In this document: one piece after another, positions 6,415 through 61,568 of the stretch
Layout: the number at the start of each line of letters is the position of its first letter
Position numbering within the stretch: the first letter of the stretch is position 1
NCBI GenBank assembly: GCA_001823545.1
Contig: MHUV01000003.1
Span: 6,718 to 70,717 of the forward strand
Direction: 5' to 3'
Length of the DNA: 64,000 nucleotides
DNA from: Candidatus Yonathbacteria bacterium RIFCSPLOWO2_01_FULL_43_27
GTDB taxonomy: Bacteria > Patescibacteriota > Minisyncoccia > Phycocordibacterales > UBA1550
Program-made: the position numbers and the translations under genes
The notes under the pieces: model-generated
What the model was told of the DNA's origin: nothing
The model's input: only the letters and a program-made list of their open reading frames with translations
Database searches by the model: none

Positions 6415-7986
6415 TTATGGAGTTACATTAATATCAAGCTCTAATTTCAATGTCGGATTTGTTGCAGAATCAGTTTCTATATAGACGACCTTTTTTGCCG
6501 GACCCGCGCCTTGCGGTCCGTGCGCCGCTGGGTCTACCTCCACTTCGATTATAATTTCTTGTCCCGGTTTGACTATCTCATTTATTTTAGACGCAAGCCC
6601 GCCGTGCCCCGGCATACCAAACGGACCCTTACGAGATGTGCCATTTATAATGGTTGCTTCTGTACACATACAAGAAGTGGTAACACTGGCGATCTCTACC
6701 GAAGAACTACCAGTATTTTTTATCTTGAACGAATGACTAACTTTTCCGTTTTTCATCGAAACCGTGCCGAAATCAAAAGATTTCTCTGACGAAACAAGCT
6801 CGCTATAGTTGCCTTTGCCTGAAATTTCTGCATCTCTATACCACACACTAATCCCGTTTGGCATCTTACCCACGTTTATTTTCGCAACTTCTTTCTCCAT
6901 AGCAGTATCAATTATTGACACATCATCACTCTTGAGATTAGTAATGTACGCAAACTTCCCATTTTTAGAAACAGTAACTCCGTGAGGAGCAGACCCACTT
7001 TTGATAGCCTGTACTACGCTCATCTCCTTCAAATCAATCTTATAGATAGTATCGCCAATTGGCTGATCAAAATAGAACCCTTGATCGGCAACATACACAA
7101 AGCGTGAGTCAGGGGTAGGATAAAGCTGTACCGGTCCTTTTGCATCTTGTGGTAAATCAACGTAGCTCAATTTTGCCAAGGCAGTATCGTATACCGCTAA
7201 ACTTTTCGCGTCATACACTGAAGCTAGTGCATACTTCCCGTCTGGCGTGACACCTGTCTGCACTGCCGCACCATTGAGTGAAATGTCTTTTAAGTTGAAA
7301 CTATCGATATCAAGAACTCCCATACTTTTGCCCGACAACATCGCGATATATGCGGTTTTTCCATCTGGTGAGATACGAAGCCCATGAGGTCCACCACCTT
7401 TTTTTGTAGTAACTTCTTTCTCTACCTCAAACGAAGTAGTGTTTATTTTGTATATAATTCCCTTTTCTTGTGATGCGACAATGGCGTACCTGCTGTCGGG
7501 TGTTAAAGAAATATGCGAGAGGTGAAGTTCCTGCCCAATTTCAATCCTCTTTATAATTACGTCTGAGAATGGATCTATGACGATGACTTCGTCGTTGTTC
7601 CTTTGCATAGCCATCCCCTCCTCGCCGTGACCTGCGTTTGCTTCAGCTCTTGGTATGATACGAAACGACATTTTCATATTCTTCTCGTCTTCTGCGTTAG
7701 CGGTTACCCATACACTTTTATTATCCGGTGCAACTTGCACATTGTGTGGCATATAACTAACCGTTATGCCATCTGTATCCTTGGATAAATTTATTTTCTT
7801 TAAAACCTGTTTTGTCTGCGGATTGAGTACAGCGATTTCTCCGGAACCCTCAATTGCAACATATACTTTTTCTTCTACACGTAAGGAACTATTAATTTTG
7901 TTTTCCTGCTTGCCACTTCCGTAATTAATAATTACTCCAATTATCACGATCGCCACCAATACAATTATAATTTTAATATTTTTCAT
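6415..7986 (-). CDS. YVTN-type beta-propeller repeat protein fused to a C-terminal DUF1573-like domain
   Basis: N-terminal TM/signal. Repeated ~40-aa units with V..P DG/DS + ..Y(V/I)(A/T)N spacing typical of YVTN/lactonase-like propellers. C-terminus SFDFGTVSMKNGKVSHSFKIKNTGSSSVEIASVTTSCMCT matches the DUF1573 SC.CT signature. Confidence 0.6.
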   Translation of the reverse strand: MKNIKIIIVLVAIVIIGVIINYGSGKQENKINSSLRVEEKVYVAIEGSGEIAVLNPQTKQVLKKINLSKDTDGITVSYMPHNVQVAPDNKSVWVTANAEDEKNMKMSFRIIPRAEANAGHGEEGMAMQRNNDEVIVIDPFSDVIIKRIEIGQELHLSHISLTPDSRYAIVASQEKGIIYKINTTSFEVEKEVTTKKGGGPHGLRISPDGKTAYIAMLSGKSMGVLDIDSFNLKDISLNGAAVQTGVTPDGKYALASVYDAKSLAVYDTALAKLSYVDLPQDAKGPVQLYPTPDSRFVYVADQGFYFDQPIGDTIYKIDLKEMSVVQAIKSGSAPHGVTVSKNGKFAYITNLKSDDVSIIDTAMEKEVAKINVGKMPNGISVWYRDAEISGKGNYSELVSSEKSFDFGTVSMKNGKVSHSFKIKNTGSSSVEIASVTTSCMCTEATIINGTSRKGPFGMPGHGGLASKINEIVKPGQEIIIEVEVDPAAHGPQGAGPAKKVVYIETDSATNPTLKLELDINVTP

Positions 7987-9879: not shown

Positions 9880-10377
9880 GTTGAGATACGGTGAAGTCTC
9901 GGTCAAGCGCTCGCTCGTCGCCTTATTTGCGGTAAATGAATCGGTCACAGATATTTTGTTCGCCCCTCGGTGAAGTCTCGGCCAAGAACATTTTTCCTCG
10001 TCGTCACTCGAAAAATTTCTCGGCCCTGCTCGGATGACCCATTCTACTGAATGGGTGCCCATCCTCGCTTTCGATTCCTTCACCTACCACGCAAACAATC
10101 GTCGCTCAATGCTCTGCATTGTTCTCCTTGTTTGCGGTAAATGAATCGGTCACAGATATTTTGTTCGTCGTCACTCATAAGATTCCGCGGTCACAGGTAT
10201 TTTTCTGCTGAAAAATCCCGCGACCCCTCCTCGCGCCGTCGCGCTCCGGCCTTGCGAAAGCTCCAAGTATTCGCTTTCTCACCCGGCTCGTGGTCTCGCG
10301 TGTTCGCTCGACAACACTCCGCCCTTCGATTCCTTCACCGTCGTAAAGCGTTGCTTTACGATACCCCTCGTTCACTG
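9880..10377. repeat. GC-rich repeat-rich non-coding island downstream of tRNA-Trp
   Basis: Exact 37-nt direct repeat tttgcggtaaatgaatcggtcacagatattttgttcg at 9926..9962 and 10131..10167. cggtgaagtctcgg at 9889 and 9968. cgtcgtcactc at 10000 and 10166. Inverted copies of the tRNA-Trp 3' end (ttcgattccttcacc) at 10069..10084 and 10325..10340. Hairpin cgtaaagc-gtt-gctttacg at 10342..10360. Confidence 0.6.
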
Positions 10378-10448
10378 CGGGCGGTGAAGGAATCGAACCC
10401 TCGACATCGGTTTTGGAGACCGAAGTTATACCATTTAACTAACCGCCC
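10378..10448 (-). tRNA. trnW: tRNA-Trp (anticodon CCA)
   Basis: Reverse complement GGGCGGT-TA-GTTA-AATGGTA-TAAC-T-TCGGT-CTCCAAA-ACCGA-TGTC-GAGGG-TTCGATT-CCTTC-ACCGCCC-G gives a full cloverleaf of 71 nt. CCA is not encoded. Confidence 0.85.
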
Positions 10449-10541: not shown

Positions 10542-10700
10542 TTATTTCTTTACTTCTTTGTGCACGGTGTGCTTCTTGCACCACTTGCAAAACTTTTCAA
10601 GTTCTATCTTTCTGGTGACGAGCTTCTTGTTTTTGCGTGACCAGTAGTTGACGCGCTTACAATTTTTACAGCCAAGTTTAATAAGTTGATCTTGTGACAT
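10542..10700 (-). CDS. rpmG: 50S ribosomal protein L33
   Basis: Manual translation gives MSQDQLIKLGCKNCKRVNYWSRKNKKLVTRKIELEKFCKWCKKHTVHKEVKK, the L33 zinc-ribbon pattern (C-x2-C ... C-x2-C). Missed by the ORF track because it is 52 aa. Confidence 0.8.
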   Translation of the reverse strand: MSQDQLIKLGCKNCKRVNYWSRKNKKLVTRKIELEKFCKWCKKHTVHKEVKK

Positions 10701-10721
10701 AAATTTAAAATATATACCAGA

Positions 10722-11120
10722 TTATACTGTTGCTTCTGTTGCTTCTTCTTTTGATTCTGTCGCAGTTTCAGCTACTACAGATTCTACGGTTGCTTCGTTT
10801 GCTACAGGTGCAGGTGTCGCCTCTACTGCAGGAGCTTCCTTGATTATAGGAGTCTTCTTGCCGAGTACGTTAATTTTCTTTCCTGTTACTGCTTTGAGAT
10901 CAAGGAGAATGTTGTGAACAGTTCCTGAGGCAATCGCACCTTTTGAAATCCAGTGCTTTGCGCGCTCAACGTTGATTACGGGCTTTCCCTTGCGAGCGTC
11001 ATACATACCAAGGATTTCGAGGAAATTCCCTGTCTTTGGTTTTAATTTTGAGTCAGCGACGATAACACGAAATGATGGATCATTCTTTCGTCCGACGCGT
11101 TGTAATCTGATTGATAACAT
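10722..11120 (-). CDS. rpsP: 30S ribosomal protein S16 with Ala/Glu/Thr-rich C-terminal tail
   Basis: MLSIRLQRVGRKNDPSFRVIVADSK is the canonical S16 N-terminus. The track ORF has a 12-aa upstream extension. Confidence 0.85.
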   Translation of the reverse strand: MLSIRLQRVGRKNDPSFRVIVADSKLKPKTGNFLEILGMYDARKGKPVINVERAKHWISKGAIASGTVHNILLDLKAVTGKKINVLGKKTPIIKEAPAVEATPAPVANEATVESVVAETATESKEEATEATV

Positions 11121-58326: not shown

Positions 58327-60120
58327 TTAATTCTCTTGTGTTTCAATTGGTTCAACAATCGATGATGGAGCGGTCGTCGGAGCAACAAACGTTCCTGTTT
58401 CTCCGGGTGGTGGTGGCATCACGGGAGGAGGATTCCACTCTCCAGAAGGCATAGTACTTCCTTCTTTATAAAACGGCATCTCGCCATCACGCGGTGGCAT
58501 ACCTTCATCACCTATCGGCGTACCATTATACGGTGGTGGTGGTGGCATGTTTCCATACTGAATATCTCTTTGCATATCAAAGGGTATCCCTTGCGCGCGA
58601 GGGTCCATCATTGGTCTGTCCTGATATTGAGGATCTATTAGTCTTCGTGGATCGAATTGAGGCCTTTCTCGTGGATGGAATAAAGATGAGGAAGTTCCCT
58701 GCCCTCCCTCAAATTTCGGAGGCATCATCTGCCCACGAAAATCCTGCGGTGGCATGTTTCCGCGCGGTCCTTCAAATTCACGCATACAAGTACTTACCGC
58801 TTGCCCGATAGCACCATCTTTACCGATCTGTGCAGTTCCTAATTCACGAAGAGCATCCTCGCCAACTTTATCTTTTACACATTCCTCAACCTGAGGAGGG
58901 AACATTTTTCCTTGGGGACGACCTTGCATAAAGGGCGCACCTCCACGAGGTGATGAAGTACTGCCCCCTTGTATGAACGGCACACCAAAACCTTCTCCGT
59001 CAGGACGCATCATTCCCGGGAATCCCATTCCTTGTGGCGCACCCTCTCTTTGTTCGTTCGGAGCACCTAAAACGCTTTCAAAACAACCGCGCATCTTCTC
59101 GCCAAAATCACGTTTGGGTGTTTGTCTGCCTGCGATCATTTGATCAAGAGCATCCTTCCCGACGACTCCCTCAAGACATTGTTTAATCTCGGCAGGTGCG
59201 TTCACAATCCCCTCTCTAAAACGCGTAAGACCCTCTTCCATCCGCGCTTTATCTTCAGGTCTGACAAGATCGTGTTCTTCAGCAAACTGCATACATTCGT
59301 CTTGATGTTCACTGCAGTATGTGTCGCATTGTTCCTTACCACGACATCCGCCAGGACCTTTACCACCAGTCTTTTTGATCATCTCTAAATCTGAGGGTGG
59401 AATGAGGTCATTCTCCTCACCGAATTTCAAACACTTCTCCATTATTTCATCACTTACAGGGTTCTCACATTGCTTAAAATCTTTCGGTGATTTGAAGGGT
59501 GCCTTTCCTTCTTCAATAAGTTTAAAAACCTTCTCGGCCTGAGCTCGGTCAACATGTGGAGGTAATAACCCCGCCTTTTCTGCAAACGCAAAACATGCAC
59601 GCGCAATGCCAACATTTTTTGGTTCTTCGCACATTTGTTTACACGACTCACCACTTGTACATCCTTCAGGTAGCGCCACACCACCCGCGAGTGCCTTCAC
59701 TACTTTTTCCGCTTCTTCAAGCTCCTGCCCTTTAAGAAGTCCGTGTGATTTACCGTACGTGACACATTCATTCATATTCTCCGGAGTGTCACAATAAGTA
59801 CGACAGCTTTTCTCCGGATCAGCCGTATTCGTCGCGCAATTACCAGGACCACCATCTTTCATGGCGATCTCTTTGCGGTCCATGCGCTCTTTTTGTTTCT
59901 CTTTTGCACTACCGACACCGTACGAGGCGGCAAAATCTTCACATGCATTTTGATGTTCGGAGACATCACAATATGCTTTACATGAAGTTTTGTCGGTACA
60001 TCCCCCAAGTTCAGTAATCGGGTACTCTATATCGAAAATAGATTTTGCGTATGCTGTCGTGGCGAACGCAGCAATCACGACAAACGAGCCAACAAACAAT
60101 TTATTTGAAAGGATTTTCAT
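58327..60120 (-). CDS. Secreted protein with 4-5 tandem ~45-aa Cys modules and a Pro/Gly/Met-rich low-complexity C-terminal half
   Basis: Signal peptide. Modules GGCTDKTSCKAYCDVSEHQNACEDFAASYG, GNCATNTADPEKSCRTYCDTPENMNECVTYGKSHGLL, EGCTSGESCKQMCEEPKNVGIARACFAFAEKAGLL, GGCRGKEQCDTYCSEHQDECMQFAEEHDL. Then PGMM/PPPP-rich sequence. Confidence 0.55.
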   Translation of the reverse strand: MKILSNKLFVGSFVVIAAFATTAYAKSIFDIEYPITELGGCTDKTSCKAYCDVSEHQNACEDFAASYGVGSAKEKQKERMDRKEIAMKDGGPGNCATNTADPEKSCRTYCDTPENMNECVTYGKSHGLLKGQELEEAEKVVKALAGGVALPEGCTSGESCKQMCEEPKNVGIARACFAFAEKAGLLPPHVDRAQAEKVFKLIEEGKAPFKSPKDFKQCENPVSDEIMEKCLKFGEENDLIPPSDLEMIKKTGGKGPGGCRGKEQCDTYCSEHQDECMQFAEEHDLVRPEDKARMEEGLTRFREGIVNAPAEIKQCLEGVVGKDALDQMIAGRQTPKRDFGEKMRGCFESVLGAPNEQREGAPQGMGFPGMMRPDGEGFGVPFIQGGSTSSPRGGAPFMQGRPQGKMFPPQVEECVKDKVGEDALRELGTAQIGKDGAIGQAVSTCMREFEGPRGNMPPQDFRGQMMPPKFEGGQGTSSSLFHPRERPQFDPRRLIDPQYQDRPMMDPRAQGIPFDMQRDIQYGNMPPPPPYNGTPIGDEGMPPRDGEMPFYKEGSTMPSGEWNPPPVMPPPPGETGTFVAPTTAPSSIVEPIETQEN

Positions 60121-60358: not shown

Positions 60359-60518
60359 ATTTTCATTAAAAGTGCTTGTGTCTAGTAATACCGTATATTG
60401 TATCGCCAATGCGGAAGATATGCGAGGATCGTTGTCCACACCCCACCACCCACCATCGGCAAAGTCATACAAGATGGTTGCATTTTTAGTGAATTTTAGT
60501 ATTATACCTATTACATAT

Positions 60519-60591
60519 TCCGTGATAGCTCAGTCGGTAGAGCGCCTCGCTGTTAACGAGGATGTCCCAGGTTCGAGCCCTGGTCACGGAG
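60519..60591 (+). tRNA. trnN: tRNA-Asn (anticodon GTT)
   Basis: TCCGTGA-TA-GCTC-AGTCGGTA-GAGC-G-CCTCG-CTGTTAA-CGAGG-ATGTC-CCAGG-TTCGAGC-CCTGG-TCACGGA-G; 73 nt. Confidence 0.9.
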
Positions 60592-60604
60592 CAAAAACAG
60601 TTAT

Positions 60605-60640
60605 GCCCCCGATATGAAAATATCGGGGGTTTACTGTTTT
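60605..60640 (+). terminator. Intrinsic terminator immediately after tRNA-Asn
   Basis: gcccccgatat-gaaaa-tatcgggggt followed by ttactgtttt. Confidence 0.7.
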
Positions 60641-60940
60641 CTCACGTGACCAGGGCTCGAAAGACGGAGGTCGCGAAGCCGATTTGAGCAAAGCGAAAAT
60701 CGTAGACCGAGTCGGGGTCGAGAGTACTTATGAGCAAAGCGAATTAGTAACTCGTGACCGCGCCCTGGTCGGCAAGCATTGATTAAGGGCTCGAACGCCG
60801 GAGCTATACCGAGCGAGCTACTCCGTGCGTCCGCACGGACGCTCTAGGAGCACAAAAGGTAGCGAGGCGGTGCCCAGACCGAGGCGAGTGACGACGAGCT
60901 GAGAGTCGAGGGAGAGATCCCTGGTTGTGTGGTTAGCAAA
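60641..60940. repeat. GC-rich repeat-rich non-coding island downstream of tRNA-Asn
   Basis: An inverted copy of the tRNA-Asn 3' end (cgtgaccagggctcgaa at 60645..60661, 17/18 match). Internal repeats gagcaaagcgaa (x2) and gtgacc(ag/gc)g..cctgg. Shares words (gagtgacgacga, cgagcgagc, gaccgag) with the tRNA-Trp island. Confidence 0.55.
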
Positions 60941-60941
60941 A

Positions 60942-60984
60942 AACACCCATACGAATATGGGTGTTTTTTGCTACCTTGAATAAG
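60942..60984. terminator. Perfect 16-bp palindromic hairpin, bidirectional-terminator-like
   Basis: gcaaaaaacacccata-cgaa-tatgggtgttttttgc. Confidence 0.6.
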
Positions 60985-61034
60985 ATTCAAACCTATTGAC
61001 ATTAGTGAACGGCTCACATATAGTATAAATATCA

Positions 61035-61568
61035 CTACGAAAGAGACCCTGATGTAGATACGTCTACATTGGGGGCTTTTTCTTTTAATCTCACGGTAGA
61101 AAATTTATGATAATGTTCGTTCAAAAACGTTATTTCAATATTTTTATTTTTTAACAAAATAGAGCACTTCTTTTCGTCGGGAGCTACGACACGATTAATT
61201 ACTTTGTTGTCTTGCAAAAACTGTACCAAACACCCAAAATCACCATCACCTGTTACTAAGATACAAGAAGTAAATGCTTTCATATAAAAATCGGAAACTG
61301 TCTTGAGCACCAATTCCGCGTCACAATTACCTTTAACCGTTCCTTCAAATGAAACTGTTTGTTTAAAAACAAGAATAAAACCACACTCCTGAAGATACTC
61401 GTAAAAGGATGTCCTGCTTGGAACAAGGCCAATAAAAAGATAGACGTTCGCTGGATTATATTTTTGACGAAGCCATCCGCGAAACTTTTTATAGTCTATT
61501 TCAAAACTAAGCTCTTTTGCTGAGCGATAGAGATTATTTCCATCAATATAAATATTGATTTTATTCAT
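61035..61568 (-). CDS. NYN/LabA-like domain protein (putative RNase)
   Basis: IYIDGNNLY and VTGDGDF motifs, with PIN-like spacing. Confidence 0.65.
   Translation of the reverse strand: MNKINIYIDGNNLYRSAKELSFEIDYKKFRGWLRQKYNPANVYLFIGLVPSRTSFYEYLQECGFILVFKQTVSFEGTVKGNCDAELVLKTVSDFYMKAFTSCILVTGDGDFGCLVQFLQDNKVINRVVAPDEKKCSILLKNKNIEITFLNEHYHKFSTVRLKEKAPNVDVSTSGSLS

Follow-up and report, generated by a model that had tools for sequence, protein, structure and literature searches.

Why should a tRNA gene be followed by a GC-rich, internally repetitive island that starts with an inverted copy of the tRNA's own 3' end? The question is raised by positions 60592-60985 of a 64,000-nt stretch of DNA (the window; positions 6,718 to 70,717 of contig MHUV01000003.1, forward strand, assembly GCA_001823545.1) from Candidatus Yonathbacteria bacterium RIFCSPLOWO2_01_FULL_43_27. 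The organism belongs to the Patescibacteria (candidate phyla radiation, CPR), which have streamlined genomes of ~1 Mb with ~40-45 tRNA genes. An original prediction, made from the letters of the window, had placed such islands after tRNA-Asn and tRNA-Trp and had argued for a real, directional class of tRNA-associated elements rather than chance. That view was upheld: members were found in at least 100 independent metagenome contigs, at nearly every isotype and at transfer-messenger RNA (tmRNA) genes, always in tRNA orientation. They form a large, conserved, strand-specific family of structured elements tied to tRNA and tmRNA 3' ends, in which the helix that closes each unit copies the acceptor/T-stem of the tRNA next to it.

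The unit of this family is ~120-150 nt long and runs from the inverted copy of the tRNA 3' end (X') through a three-way junction with two hairpins to a direct copy of the same end (X_d). The direct copy that partners each inverted copy, the three-way junction and the presence of two tandem units in the island had gone unnoticed earlier. The junction was given concurrently by RNAalifold and by a covariance model, R1, which was built from 107 units and has rough E-values (shortened calibration). Helix P1 is X' paired with X_d; P2 begins with a pairing of G-N-C and G-N'-C and contains an internal GGA/GA loop; P3 pairs GGUCG... with ...YGUGACC. The junction reads UCGAA-AG-N-CGGAG ... GAG-N'-CGGGGUCG ... 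YGUGAC, and its joining strands are near-invariant (N-UCG-AAA-G-N-C-GGAG ... GAG-N'-C-GGG-GUCG ... Y-GUGAC). With filters off, R1 found exactly four units in the window, all within the two islands: the Asn island is two tandem units, and the Trp island is two units and a fragment.

Covariation analysis, which had been suggested for the islands, supported P2 and P3. Across 137 sequences the covariation was 0.527, versus 0.161 in shuffles (0/500 reached the observed value) and at most 0.104 in slid controls; 94.3% of paired cells could pair, versus 73.5% in shuffles, and double changes occurred at 23 of 25 pairs. This support rests on P2 and P3 positions outside the fixed search motifs. The junction pair N/N' was CG 58 times, AU 31, GC 30 and UA 5. 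One G-U pair was invariant and another was divided between 66 GC and 50 GU, and because of these G-U pairs the tRNA-sense strand is the folding strand. Single-sequence fold z-scores were -4.6 to -6.1 on the sense strand and -2.3 on the antisense strand. When the window was compared with its closest relative, locus L007, one P2 hairpin (Trp unit 2) was seen to change from GGATG..CATCC to CGCG..CGCG, with an A-T to G-C replacement and the AGTA loop kept. The tRNA-sense strand most likely folds as RNA.

The covariation of P1 is not independent evidence, because both of its strands copy the tRNA. Compensation between X' and X_d was rare (10 versus 73 cases), so P1 has no independent support, and the deviations within the arms, used as a test of RNA pairing in P1, displayed no wobble bias. 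In one subtype a hairpin, often with a CUGC loop, stands between the acceptor-like and T-stem-like parts of X', and the fold is then more tRNA-like; kissing of a P0 loop CUGC with a P2 loop GCAG was not supported by any association (p = 0.26). As read from the alignment, the base of P2 has GGA opposite GA, and the tips of P3 read GAG-YR..RC-GAR, which is consistent with tandem G.A pairs, with a bulge of 1 nt where a kink-turn (K-turn) has 3. The whole can be modelled as the acceptor/T-stem top half of a tRNA in which a ~90-nt domain replaces the T-loop.

In the window the host gene of the first island, tRNA-Asn(GTT), lies at 60519-60592 (+; ARAGORN; Rfam tRNA, 69.6 bits), and its segment from the T-loop to the 3' end, 60572-60588 onward, is the template for the element arms. 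It is followed by a spacer hairpin like that of an intrinsic terminator (60605-60640, +; terminator scan, inverted repeats I5 and I8), in which the hairpin proper lies at 60605-60630 and leads into a T-rich tail (TTACTGTTTT); a terminator hairpin had already been noted here. X'1, the 5' strand of P1, occupies 60645-60661 (+) and is a perfect 17-nt reverse complement of tRNA-Asn ~54-70, covering the complement of the T-loop, the T-stem 3' strand and the acceptor 3' strand. The inverted copy is thus where the original prediction had put it, but the match is 17/17 against 60572-60588 and not 17/18. It is unique in the 64 kb even with three mismatches allowed (chance expectation 0.06). Together the tRNA-Asn 3' end and X'1 form a quasi-palindrome of ~90 nt (60572-60661) with the spacer hairpin at its centre.

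Asn unit 1 (60644-60778, +) was matched by R1 at 72.4 bits (E = 3e-20). Along the plus strand it consists of the junction CGAA-AGACGGAG (60658-60669), P2 (60663-60713; loop GAGCAAAGCGAA at 60686-60697), GAGTCGGGGTCG (60709-60720), P3 (60716-60759; loop TGAGCAAAGCGAA at 60731-60743), GTGACCG (60754-60760) and X_d1, the 3' strand of P1 (60759-60777; direct repeats D1 and D4, model alignment). X_d1 is a degenerate direct copy of the tRNA-Asn 3' end from C56 (CGCGCCCTGGTCGGCAAGC versus CGAGCCCTGGTCACGGAGC). The minimum-free-energy fold of this unit is the three-way junction (z = -4.6 sense versus -2.3 antisense). Asn unit 2 (60779-60933, +; R1 28.1 bits, E = 9e-7, filters off; repeats D2 and I6) is a more degenerate tandem copy, with a truncated X'2 (AGGGCTCGAAC, 60786-60796, +), a junction reading CGAACGCCGGAG, a P3 loop GAGTGACGACGA at 60886-60897 and a second degenerate direct copy of the tRNA-Asn 3' end, X_d2 (GAGATCCCTGGTTGTGTGGTTAGC, 60914-60937, +; repeat D1). 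X_d2 continues into an AAAAA(A)CA tract, the same as the tract after tRNA-Asn, and pairs with X'1 when the whole Asn island is folded; it is probably the displaced original 3' end of tRNA-Asn.

The island is closed by a palindrome that is perfect, as had been stated, with 18-nt arms at 60934-60951 and 60956-60973 (no strand assigned; inverted repeat I1, ORF (open reading frame) map) in place of the 16 bp given for 60942-60984. Flanked by an A-tract and a T-tract, it is a bidirectional terminator that also ends the convergent NYN gene (61035-61568, minus), and it probably once served as the terminator of tRNA-Asn itself. The two terminator-type hairpins (60605-60630 with its T-run; 60934-60973) explain ~80 of the 390 bp, and the 290 bp between them is the element, with a GC content of 0.58 over the ~290-bp Asn island versus 0.42 in the window. 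The internal degenerate repeats were recovered as described: TGAGCAAAGCGAA occurs twice (60685 and 60731), and AGGGCTCGAAAGACGGAG and AGGGCTCGAACGCCGGAG are 89% identical.

The host gene of the second island, tRNA-Trp(CCA), lies at 10377-10448 (minus; ARAGORN, Rfam) and is followed by a hairpin, by inverted copies and by ~500 bp of GC-rich DNA with internal repeats. Trp unit 1 (10129-10342, minus; R1 50-52 bits, repeats) has a model match spanning 10342-10167 at 50.4 bits, an X'1 that is perfect over 16 nt (10325-10340), a long P2 insertion, GGGGTCGCGG-hairpin-CTGTGACCG and a degenerate direct copy GATTCATTTACCGCAAA; its homologue in L007 scored 90.8 bits. Trp unit 2 (9961-10087, minus; R1 44.6 bits, L007 alignment, fold z = -6.1) has an X'2 that is perfect over 15 nt (10070-10084), a P3 loop GAGTGACGACGAG and a degenerate direct copy CGAGACTTCACCG. 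The partial third repeat (9885-9960, minus; direct repeats D1 and D4) is a 45-nt duplicate of the P3 3' strand and direct copy of unit 1, followed by a second CTTGACCGAGACTTCACCG.

Read in tRNA orientation, the Asn and Trp islands shared 17 8-mers, versus 4.6 +/- 2.6 in dinucleotide shuffles (0/300), and one 8-mer in the opposite orientation, so the sharing of words that had been pointed out goes beyond chance. GTGACCG among these words is a helix 3' strand plus junction, GAGTGACGACGA and GAGCAAAGCGAA are apical loop motifs, and CGAA-RGNCGGAG comprises the last part of the inverted copy and a strand of the junction. Loci L031 and L007 and the window carry the same motifs; the shared words and degenerate repeats are therefore parts of one element. 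The architecture common to both tRNAs accordingly stood as regards the inverted copy and the GC-rich part, the supposed repeat being really the conserved junction.

A single clean unit was found after tRNA-Leu(TAG) in L031 (Candidatus Yonathbacteria), in the order tRNA, terminator, imperfect inverted copy, AGACGGAG, GAGTCGGGGTCGCGG, hairpin, CCGTGACCG, perfect 19-nt direct copy and terminator. The tRNA-Trp island of L007 has the same internal motifs, its ribosomal protein S16 is 93% identical to that of the window, and the inverted 3'-end copy is kept at this orthologous locus, as a true element class should have it according to the original prediction. Orthologous tRNA-Trp loci were sought by an S16 scan of the genome collection, which gave 80 loci (1.2 Mb); the S16-L33-tRNA-Trp arrangement was kept only in L007 among the 80 S16 loci, and only five other tRNAs were present in the 1.2 Mb; this sequence also supplied the clean L031 unit and a negative control for R1. 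The rpsP (S16)-rpmG (L33)-tRNA-Trp order of the window (10542-11117, minus) is itself unusual.

Metagenomes were scanned with the pattern CGAANGNCGGAG-N(30-60)-GGGGTCG-N(18-40)-GTGACCG, and at least 120 loci were obtained. The pattern fixes three motifs, and divergent relatives are under-sampled among the loci listed; because the loci were chosen by it, the invariance of these motifs is partly built in. A same-strand ARAGORN tRNA lay 17-95 nt upstream of 88 of the 121 matches listed, which included 18 isotypes (Trp, Leu, Pro, Met, Gly, Ala, Cys, Arg, His, Ser, Asn, Tyr, Val, Glu, Lys, Asp, Phe and Ile). Most of the other listed matches came after tmRNA genes or tRNA genes split by group I introns, or at contig ends, and five were chance matches in GC-rich coding DNA. 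R1 gave 137 copies in the listed loci, 102 of them at most 100 nt downstream of a same-strand tRNA or tmRNA; 13 further copies were second units of arrays. The element followed 101 of 197 tRNA/tmRNA genes with enough flank, an occupancy measured in contigs selected for holding at least one element, and the expectation that other tRNAs would have such islands was thus met by about half of the tRNAs in these related contigs. In 1.14 Mb of related Patescibacteria sequence lacking tRNAs, R1 found no copies except beside the tRNAs of L007 and L031. Among 2.9 million viral contigs the pattern had only two matches (~22 bits), and because of this the element is taken not to be phage-linked. The GC content of the elements ranged from 0.39 to 0.78, and their hosts include at least Yonathbacteria and Kaiserbacteria-like Paceibacterota (one GC-rich locus).

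Not every copy follows a plain tRNA gene. Elements after tmRNA genes (L104, L129, L143, L154 and L161) have arms that match the tmRNA T-arm and acceptor; in L104 (944-1513), for example, GAGACGCCGGGAATCGAA complements TTCGATTCCCGGCGTCTC of the tmRNA. Split tRNA genes, recognised by the GATATAGTCC intron core and missed by a plain ARAGORN run, lie upstream of the elements in L116, L121, L162 and L198 and in L091 (4309-4597), which accords with a recent paper reporting that tRNA genes of Patescibacteria contain group I introns (PMC13011429). Copies with no tRNA were present at L131 (10266-10525, minus), L137 (1-276) and L153 (6534-6790, minus), and also in L182. The first three have a -10-like box (TGTTATAAT, TATACT and TGATATAAT, respectively) directly before the spacer hairpin, and L131 and L137 have in common a conserved upstream block, AAGCCACCACGCGC...GCGCGTGCGC. 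After tRNA-Lys(CTT) in L164 (4774-4860, minus) and L145 (10869-10989, minus), a variant without the T-loop-derived UCGAA/CGA part of P1 was found; its 5' arm, TGTCCG, complements only the extreme tRNA end, CGGACA, and it has no direct copy. The family therefore has subtypes outside the search pattern.

A separate observation concerns the spacer. In many type-A spacers (for example L031, L092, L093, L109, L119, L128 and L151) the motif TTTTGTAG(C/G) recurs between the T-tract and X'. In the long hairpin formed by tRNA and X' it places an A bulge across from the discriminator region of the tRNA. The tetranucleotide GTAG is also conserved before repetitive extragenic palindromic (REP) hairpins recognised by RAYT transposases, and the likeness of the spacer motif to it is a candidate only.

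The two arms are differently related to the tRNA. X' is a reverse complement of the part of the cognate tRNA that starts at T54 and takes in the 3' strands of T-stem and acceptor. At G.U pairs of the T-stem it has the Watson-Crick A 19 times and the G of the tRNA 5' strand four times, and it is for this reason identified as a templated reverse complement of the 3' strand and not as a decayed tandem tRNA. X_d always starts at C56, directly after the invariant GUGAC, extends to the discriminator and often takes in CCA together with a little of the flank. At many loci the match is perfect across 18-19 nt; in the window it is degenerate. In 50 well-preserved copies the identity continued past the discriminator for 0-7 further bases of flank, and in arrays for up to 22. 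CCA was encoded in X_d and not in the adjacent gene in 11 cases, with no case of the reverse, and it was encoded by 14 of 94 tRNAs with an element versus 29 of 90 without one at the same loci (p = 0.008). This asymmetry is expected if the present 3' end of the gene came with the element and X_d is the displaced original.

Occupancy varies between related genomes at a conserved Cys-Leu(TAA)-Lys(CTT)-Leu(TAG) tRNA cluster: all four tRNAs are occupied in L099, tRNA-Cys is empty in L164, with a 22-nt gap to the next tRNA, and tRNA-Lys is empty in L094. Cores, taken outside the arms, were 85-94% identical at different isotypes (Arg/Ala 94%, Leu/Pro 91%, Asn/Arg 91%). In L147 the acceptor part of X' fits the local tRNA-Ala and X_d is still tRNA-Arg-like; recombination between resident elements can explain this locus, and similar cores at different isotypes are therefore no proof of transposition. 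In 11 of 15 arrays the proximal unit scored above the distal one. In L194 (~2182-2420, minus) a tRNA-Ser(GGA) is complete through the T-arm and its acceptor 3' strand (TCTTTCCGCCA) comes only after the element, so that the gene may be a disrupted pseudogene or, exceptionally, one from which the element would have to be removed before a tRNA could be made.

With a probability of about one in two, judged from sequence comparison, the element is a non-autonomous cassette that enters tRNA genes at the T-loop, brings a replacement 3' end and encodes a mimic of the tRNA top half. Such a cassette would enter through homology at X and would supply the new 3' end together with a spacer or terminator; the old 3' end would be pushed downstream and become X_d. 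Repeated entry would produce arrays with decaying distal units, recombination between copies of X would remove cassettes, and cores would be swapped among loci. With a terminator-free spacer the element would be co-transcribed with the tRNA; elsewhere its transcript would arise by read-through or from a promoter of its own. Since the element RNA ends like the adjacent tRNA, RNase P and the enzymes of tRNA 3'-end maturation could excise it. The junction domain could possibly bind protein through K-turn-like motifs or be catalytic.

Several points weigh against the cassette. A good terminator stands between tRNA-Asn and unit 1. The flanks of ~100 loci contained no recombinase, reverse transcriptase or other enzyme that could mobilise the element in cis, and no close-strain pair of a filled and an empty site was obtained from the contexts of NYN homologues, which had been sought for an orthologous empty tRNA-Asn site and had no conserved synteny. 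The exchange of cores between resident elements, as in L147, can explain the similar cores without transposition, the proximal-over-distal trend (11/15) is weak, and the CCA asymmetry could come from selection acting on the element RNA to end like a tRNA. Finally, all four X_d copies of the window are degenerate and its three full-length X' copies are perfect, a combination that X'-tRNA pairing or a DNA-level correction of the palindrome would fit better than a closed P1.

Such X'-tRNA pairing underlies an alternative that we consider possible but unlikely, namely that the element is a cis-acting part of the pre-tRNA, the trailer of which would fold back so that X' pairs with the tRNA 3' half. 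The duplex would mask the tRNA or delay its folding, mark read-through transcripts for RNase III or guide 3'-end processing; the junction would recruit an enzyme or, by analogy with the theta ribozymes at phage tRNAs, act as a ribozyme. In its favour, the three full-length X' copies of the window are perfect tRNA complements while spacer and direct copies are degenerate, X' keeps to Watson-Crick complementarity with the 3' strand (19 versus 4), and element-linked tRNAs seldom encode CCA, like those linked to theta ribozymes (PMC10879173). Co-transcription would be likely for the 57 of 88 spacers in which a crude scan found no terminator-like hairpin. In at least 31 of the 88, however, a terminator-like hairpin lies between tRNA and X'; as tRNA-Asn is among them, the idea of 3'-end masking by fold-back, which had accompanied the original prediction, is weakened. 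Pairing of X' with the tRNA would also unfold a functional tRNA, an alternative partner of X' exists in X_d, many copies of which are perfect, the element is missing from about half of the tRNAs on these contigs, decayed tandem copies and tRNA-less copies exist, and no known ribozyme family matches.

It is quite improbable that the islands are scars of integrase islands, that is, deletion remnants of tyrosine-integrase elements in which the core would be an arm-type protein-binding region. A direct copy from the T-loop to or beyond the 3' end, the use of tmRNA genes, the observed tandem accretion and decay and the retention of CCA by the displaced copy would all suit such an origin, and Williams is said to have reported in 2002 that integrases prefer particular sublocations in tRNA/tmRNA genes. 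Yet no integrase or other recurrent gene was found nearby: in an all-against-all BLASTP comparison of 1090 flanking ORFs no protein family occurred in more than seven of ~100 loci, those found were housekeeping proteins, and the inserts, which measure 130-500 bp in their entirety in at least 100 loci, contained no integrase, recombinase or cargo ORF family. The RNA-type covariation and strand-specific G-U pairs are unlike duplex DNA sites, classical attachment (att) sites have no inverted copy, and the 2.9 million viral contigs gave the two weak pattern matches only. A decayed tandem tRNA duplicate, or chance GC-rich sequence with spurious repeats, is rejected, since the likeness of the arms to acceptor and T-stem strands and a GC-richness like that of tRNA stand against shuffling tests, covariation, at least 100 homologous copies, an X' that complements the 3' strand rather than matching the 5' strand at G.U positions (19 versus 4), missing D- and anticodon arms, units in which ARAGORN and Rfam give no tRNA and a conserved junction unrelated to tRNA.

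Other candidates were tried and rejected. A tRNA intron did not fit, as the upstream tRNA was complete in 102 cases and virtual splicing yielded no hidden tRNA; only L194 fits. A minus-strand gene was discarded (antisense fold z = -0.65 for the island and -2.3 for unit 1; R1 matched the tRNA-sense strand only), as was a coding reading (ORFs of only 31-42 aa in the island, RNA-like conservation pattern). A hammerhead or hepatitis delta virus (HDV)-like topology was rejected after comparison with consensus sequences by eye, on account of unlike strand order and pairing.

The element appears to be undescribed. In a cmscan of the window against Rfam 15 at gathering score, and of 60400-61100 at E<=10, only tRNA and chance miRNA-hairpin matches were returned, nothing overlapped the element at E<=0.1 in 20 loci with high-scoring units, and no description of it was found in the open-access literature. 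The nearest published analogue found was the theta (HDV-like) ribozymes, which lie directly 3' of many phage tRNAs and have been proposed to act in tRNA 3' maturation (PMC10879173). As here, one small RNA accompanies each tRNA and CCA is seldom encoded, but theta ribozymes have an HDV double-pseudoknot and a cleavage site within +/-5 nt of the tRNA end (PMC10879173), whereas the present elements have a three-way junction, start 17-95 nt downstream, carry tRNA-derived arms and occur in CPR bacteria, not phages.

Integrative elements of tRNA/tmRNA genes (tyrosine-integrase islands, prophages) resemble the family in their T-loop-to-3'-end target, flanking direct repeat and tandem arrays, and in leaving the target gene intact with a new 3' end from the incoming DNA; the family differs in its ~130-250-bp insert with no integrase or cargo, its extra inverted copy and its RNA-type junction. 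Integron attC cassettes and the folded phage attachment site (attP) of CTX phage offer an analogy of architecture only (arrays, palindromic boundaries): non-autonomous units are stacked at a fixed attachment point, the newest usually nearest, an imperfect palindrome bounds the unit, and a folded single strand mimics a duplex recombination site. Here the attachment point is a tRNA 3' end and the cargo a structured RNA instead of an ORF, and no integron integrase, attI site or attC R/L boxes were seen, although no search aimed at them was made. The tRNA-like structures (the tmRNA domain, viral tRNA-like structures (TLS), mascRNA and the bacterial Y RNA YrlA) likewise have a coaxial acceptor/T-stem helix with discriminator +/- CCA, a potential substrate for RNase P, for 3'-end enzymes and for the enzyme that adds CCA; the present element differs from them in that it has no D- or anticodon arm, has a ~90-nt junction for a T-loop, copies its helix from the upstream tRNA and matches nothing in Rfam. 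REP elements and bacterial interspersed mosaic elements (BIME), Correia elements, enterobacterial repetitive intergenic consensus (ERIC) sequences and other miniature inverted-repeat transposable elements (MITEs) are also repeated, structured, non-coding and intergenic, occur in many copies in a genome and frequently lie where transcription units end (3'), and GOLLD and ROOL are large orphan RNAs often near tRNAs. All of these have fixed ends that are not tailored to the neighbour, none is limited to tRNA 3' flanks with matched arms, and the present element has no sequence or structure match in Rfam 15. Each known system has some of the features, and none has the full combination.

With about half of the tRNAs occupied, often by arrays, in the contigs examined, the element would rank among the most abundant non-coding features of CPR genomes. 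If its arms are copied from the target at insertion, the mechanism would be one that mobile elements of bacteria are not known to use; if instead the arms persist because they pair with the tRNA or mimic it, a new interaction with tRNA maturation, quality control or charging would be implied. A bolder reading, regarded as doubtful, is a small mobile RNA cassette of a new kind, specific to tRNA/tmRNA genes: a three-way-junction RNA, ribozyme-like or forming a ribonucleoprotein, would use X' as a 15-20-nt guide to the 3' half of the tRNA, would insert or be inserted at the 55/56 bond of the T-loop, and would leave the host tRNA functional by bringing a replacement 3' end. In a related possibility the transcripts would be a set of isotype-matched tRNA top-half mimics, one per tRNA and ending in discriminator-CCA, which the tRNA machinery might process and perhaps charge. 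If true, either would amount to a previously unrecognised layer of tRNA biology in ultra-small CPR bacteria. There are practical consequences as well. In two public assemblies of the same strain, L005 (GCA_001825055.1) and L004, runs of N lie between the tRNA/X' inverted repeats and at the closing palindrome, aligning to 60577-60637 and 60913-60960 of the window; since the gaps sit exactly there, the palindromes break or confuse assembly. The direct copies can mislead the annotation of tRNAs and genomic islands, and R1 permits annotation of the family and expression tests in existing metatranscriptomes.

Two observations concern the neighbourhood of the Asn island. A 597-aa ORF upstream of tRNA-Asn (58327-60120, minus), for which no Pfam match was recorded in the context table, has a signal-like N-terminus, repeated Cys-containing modules and a C-terminal half rich in Pro, Gly and Met. 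On the other side, at 60996-61074 (+), a near-consensus sigma-70 promoter (TTGACA-17-TATAGT, 11/12) stands ~22 nt before a terminator-like hairpin (61047-61074), the two being located within the 3' end of the NYN-domain gene (61035-61568, minus) or antisense to it; they may form a very short small RNA or antisense unit, or a bidirectional terminator beside a spurious promoter.

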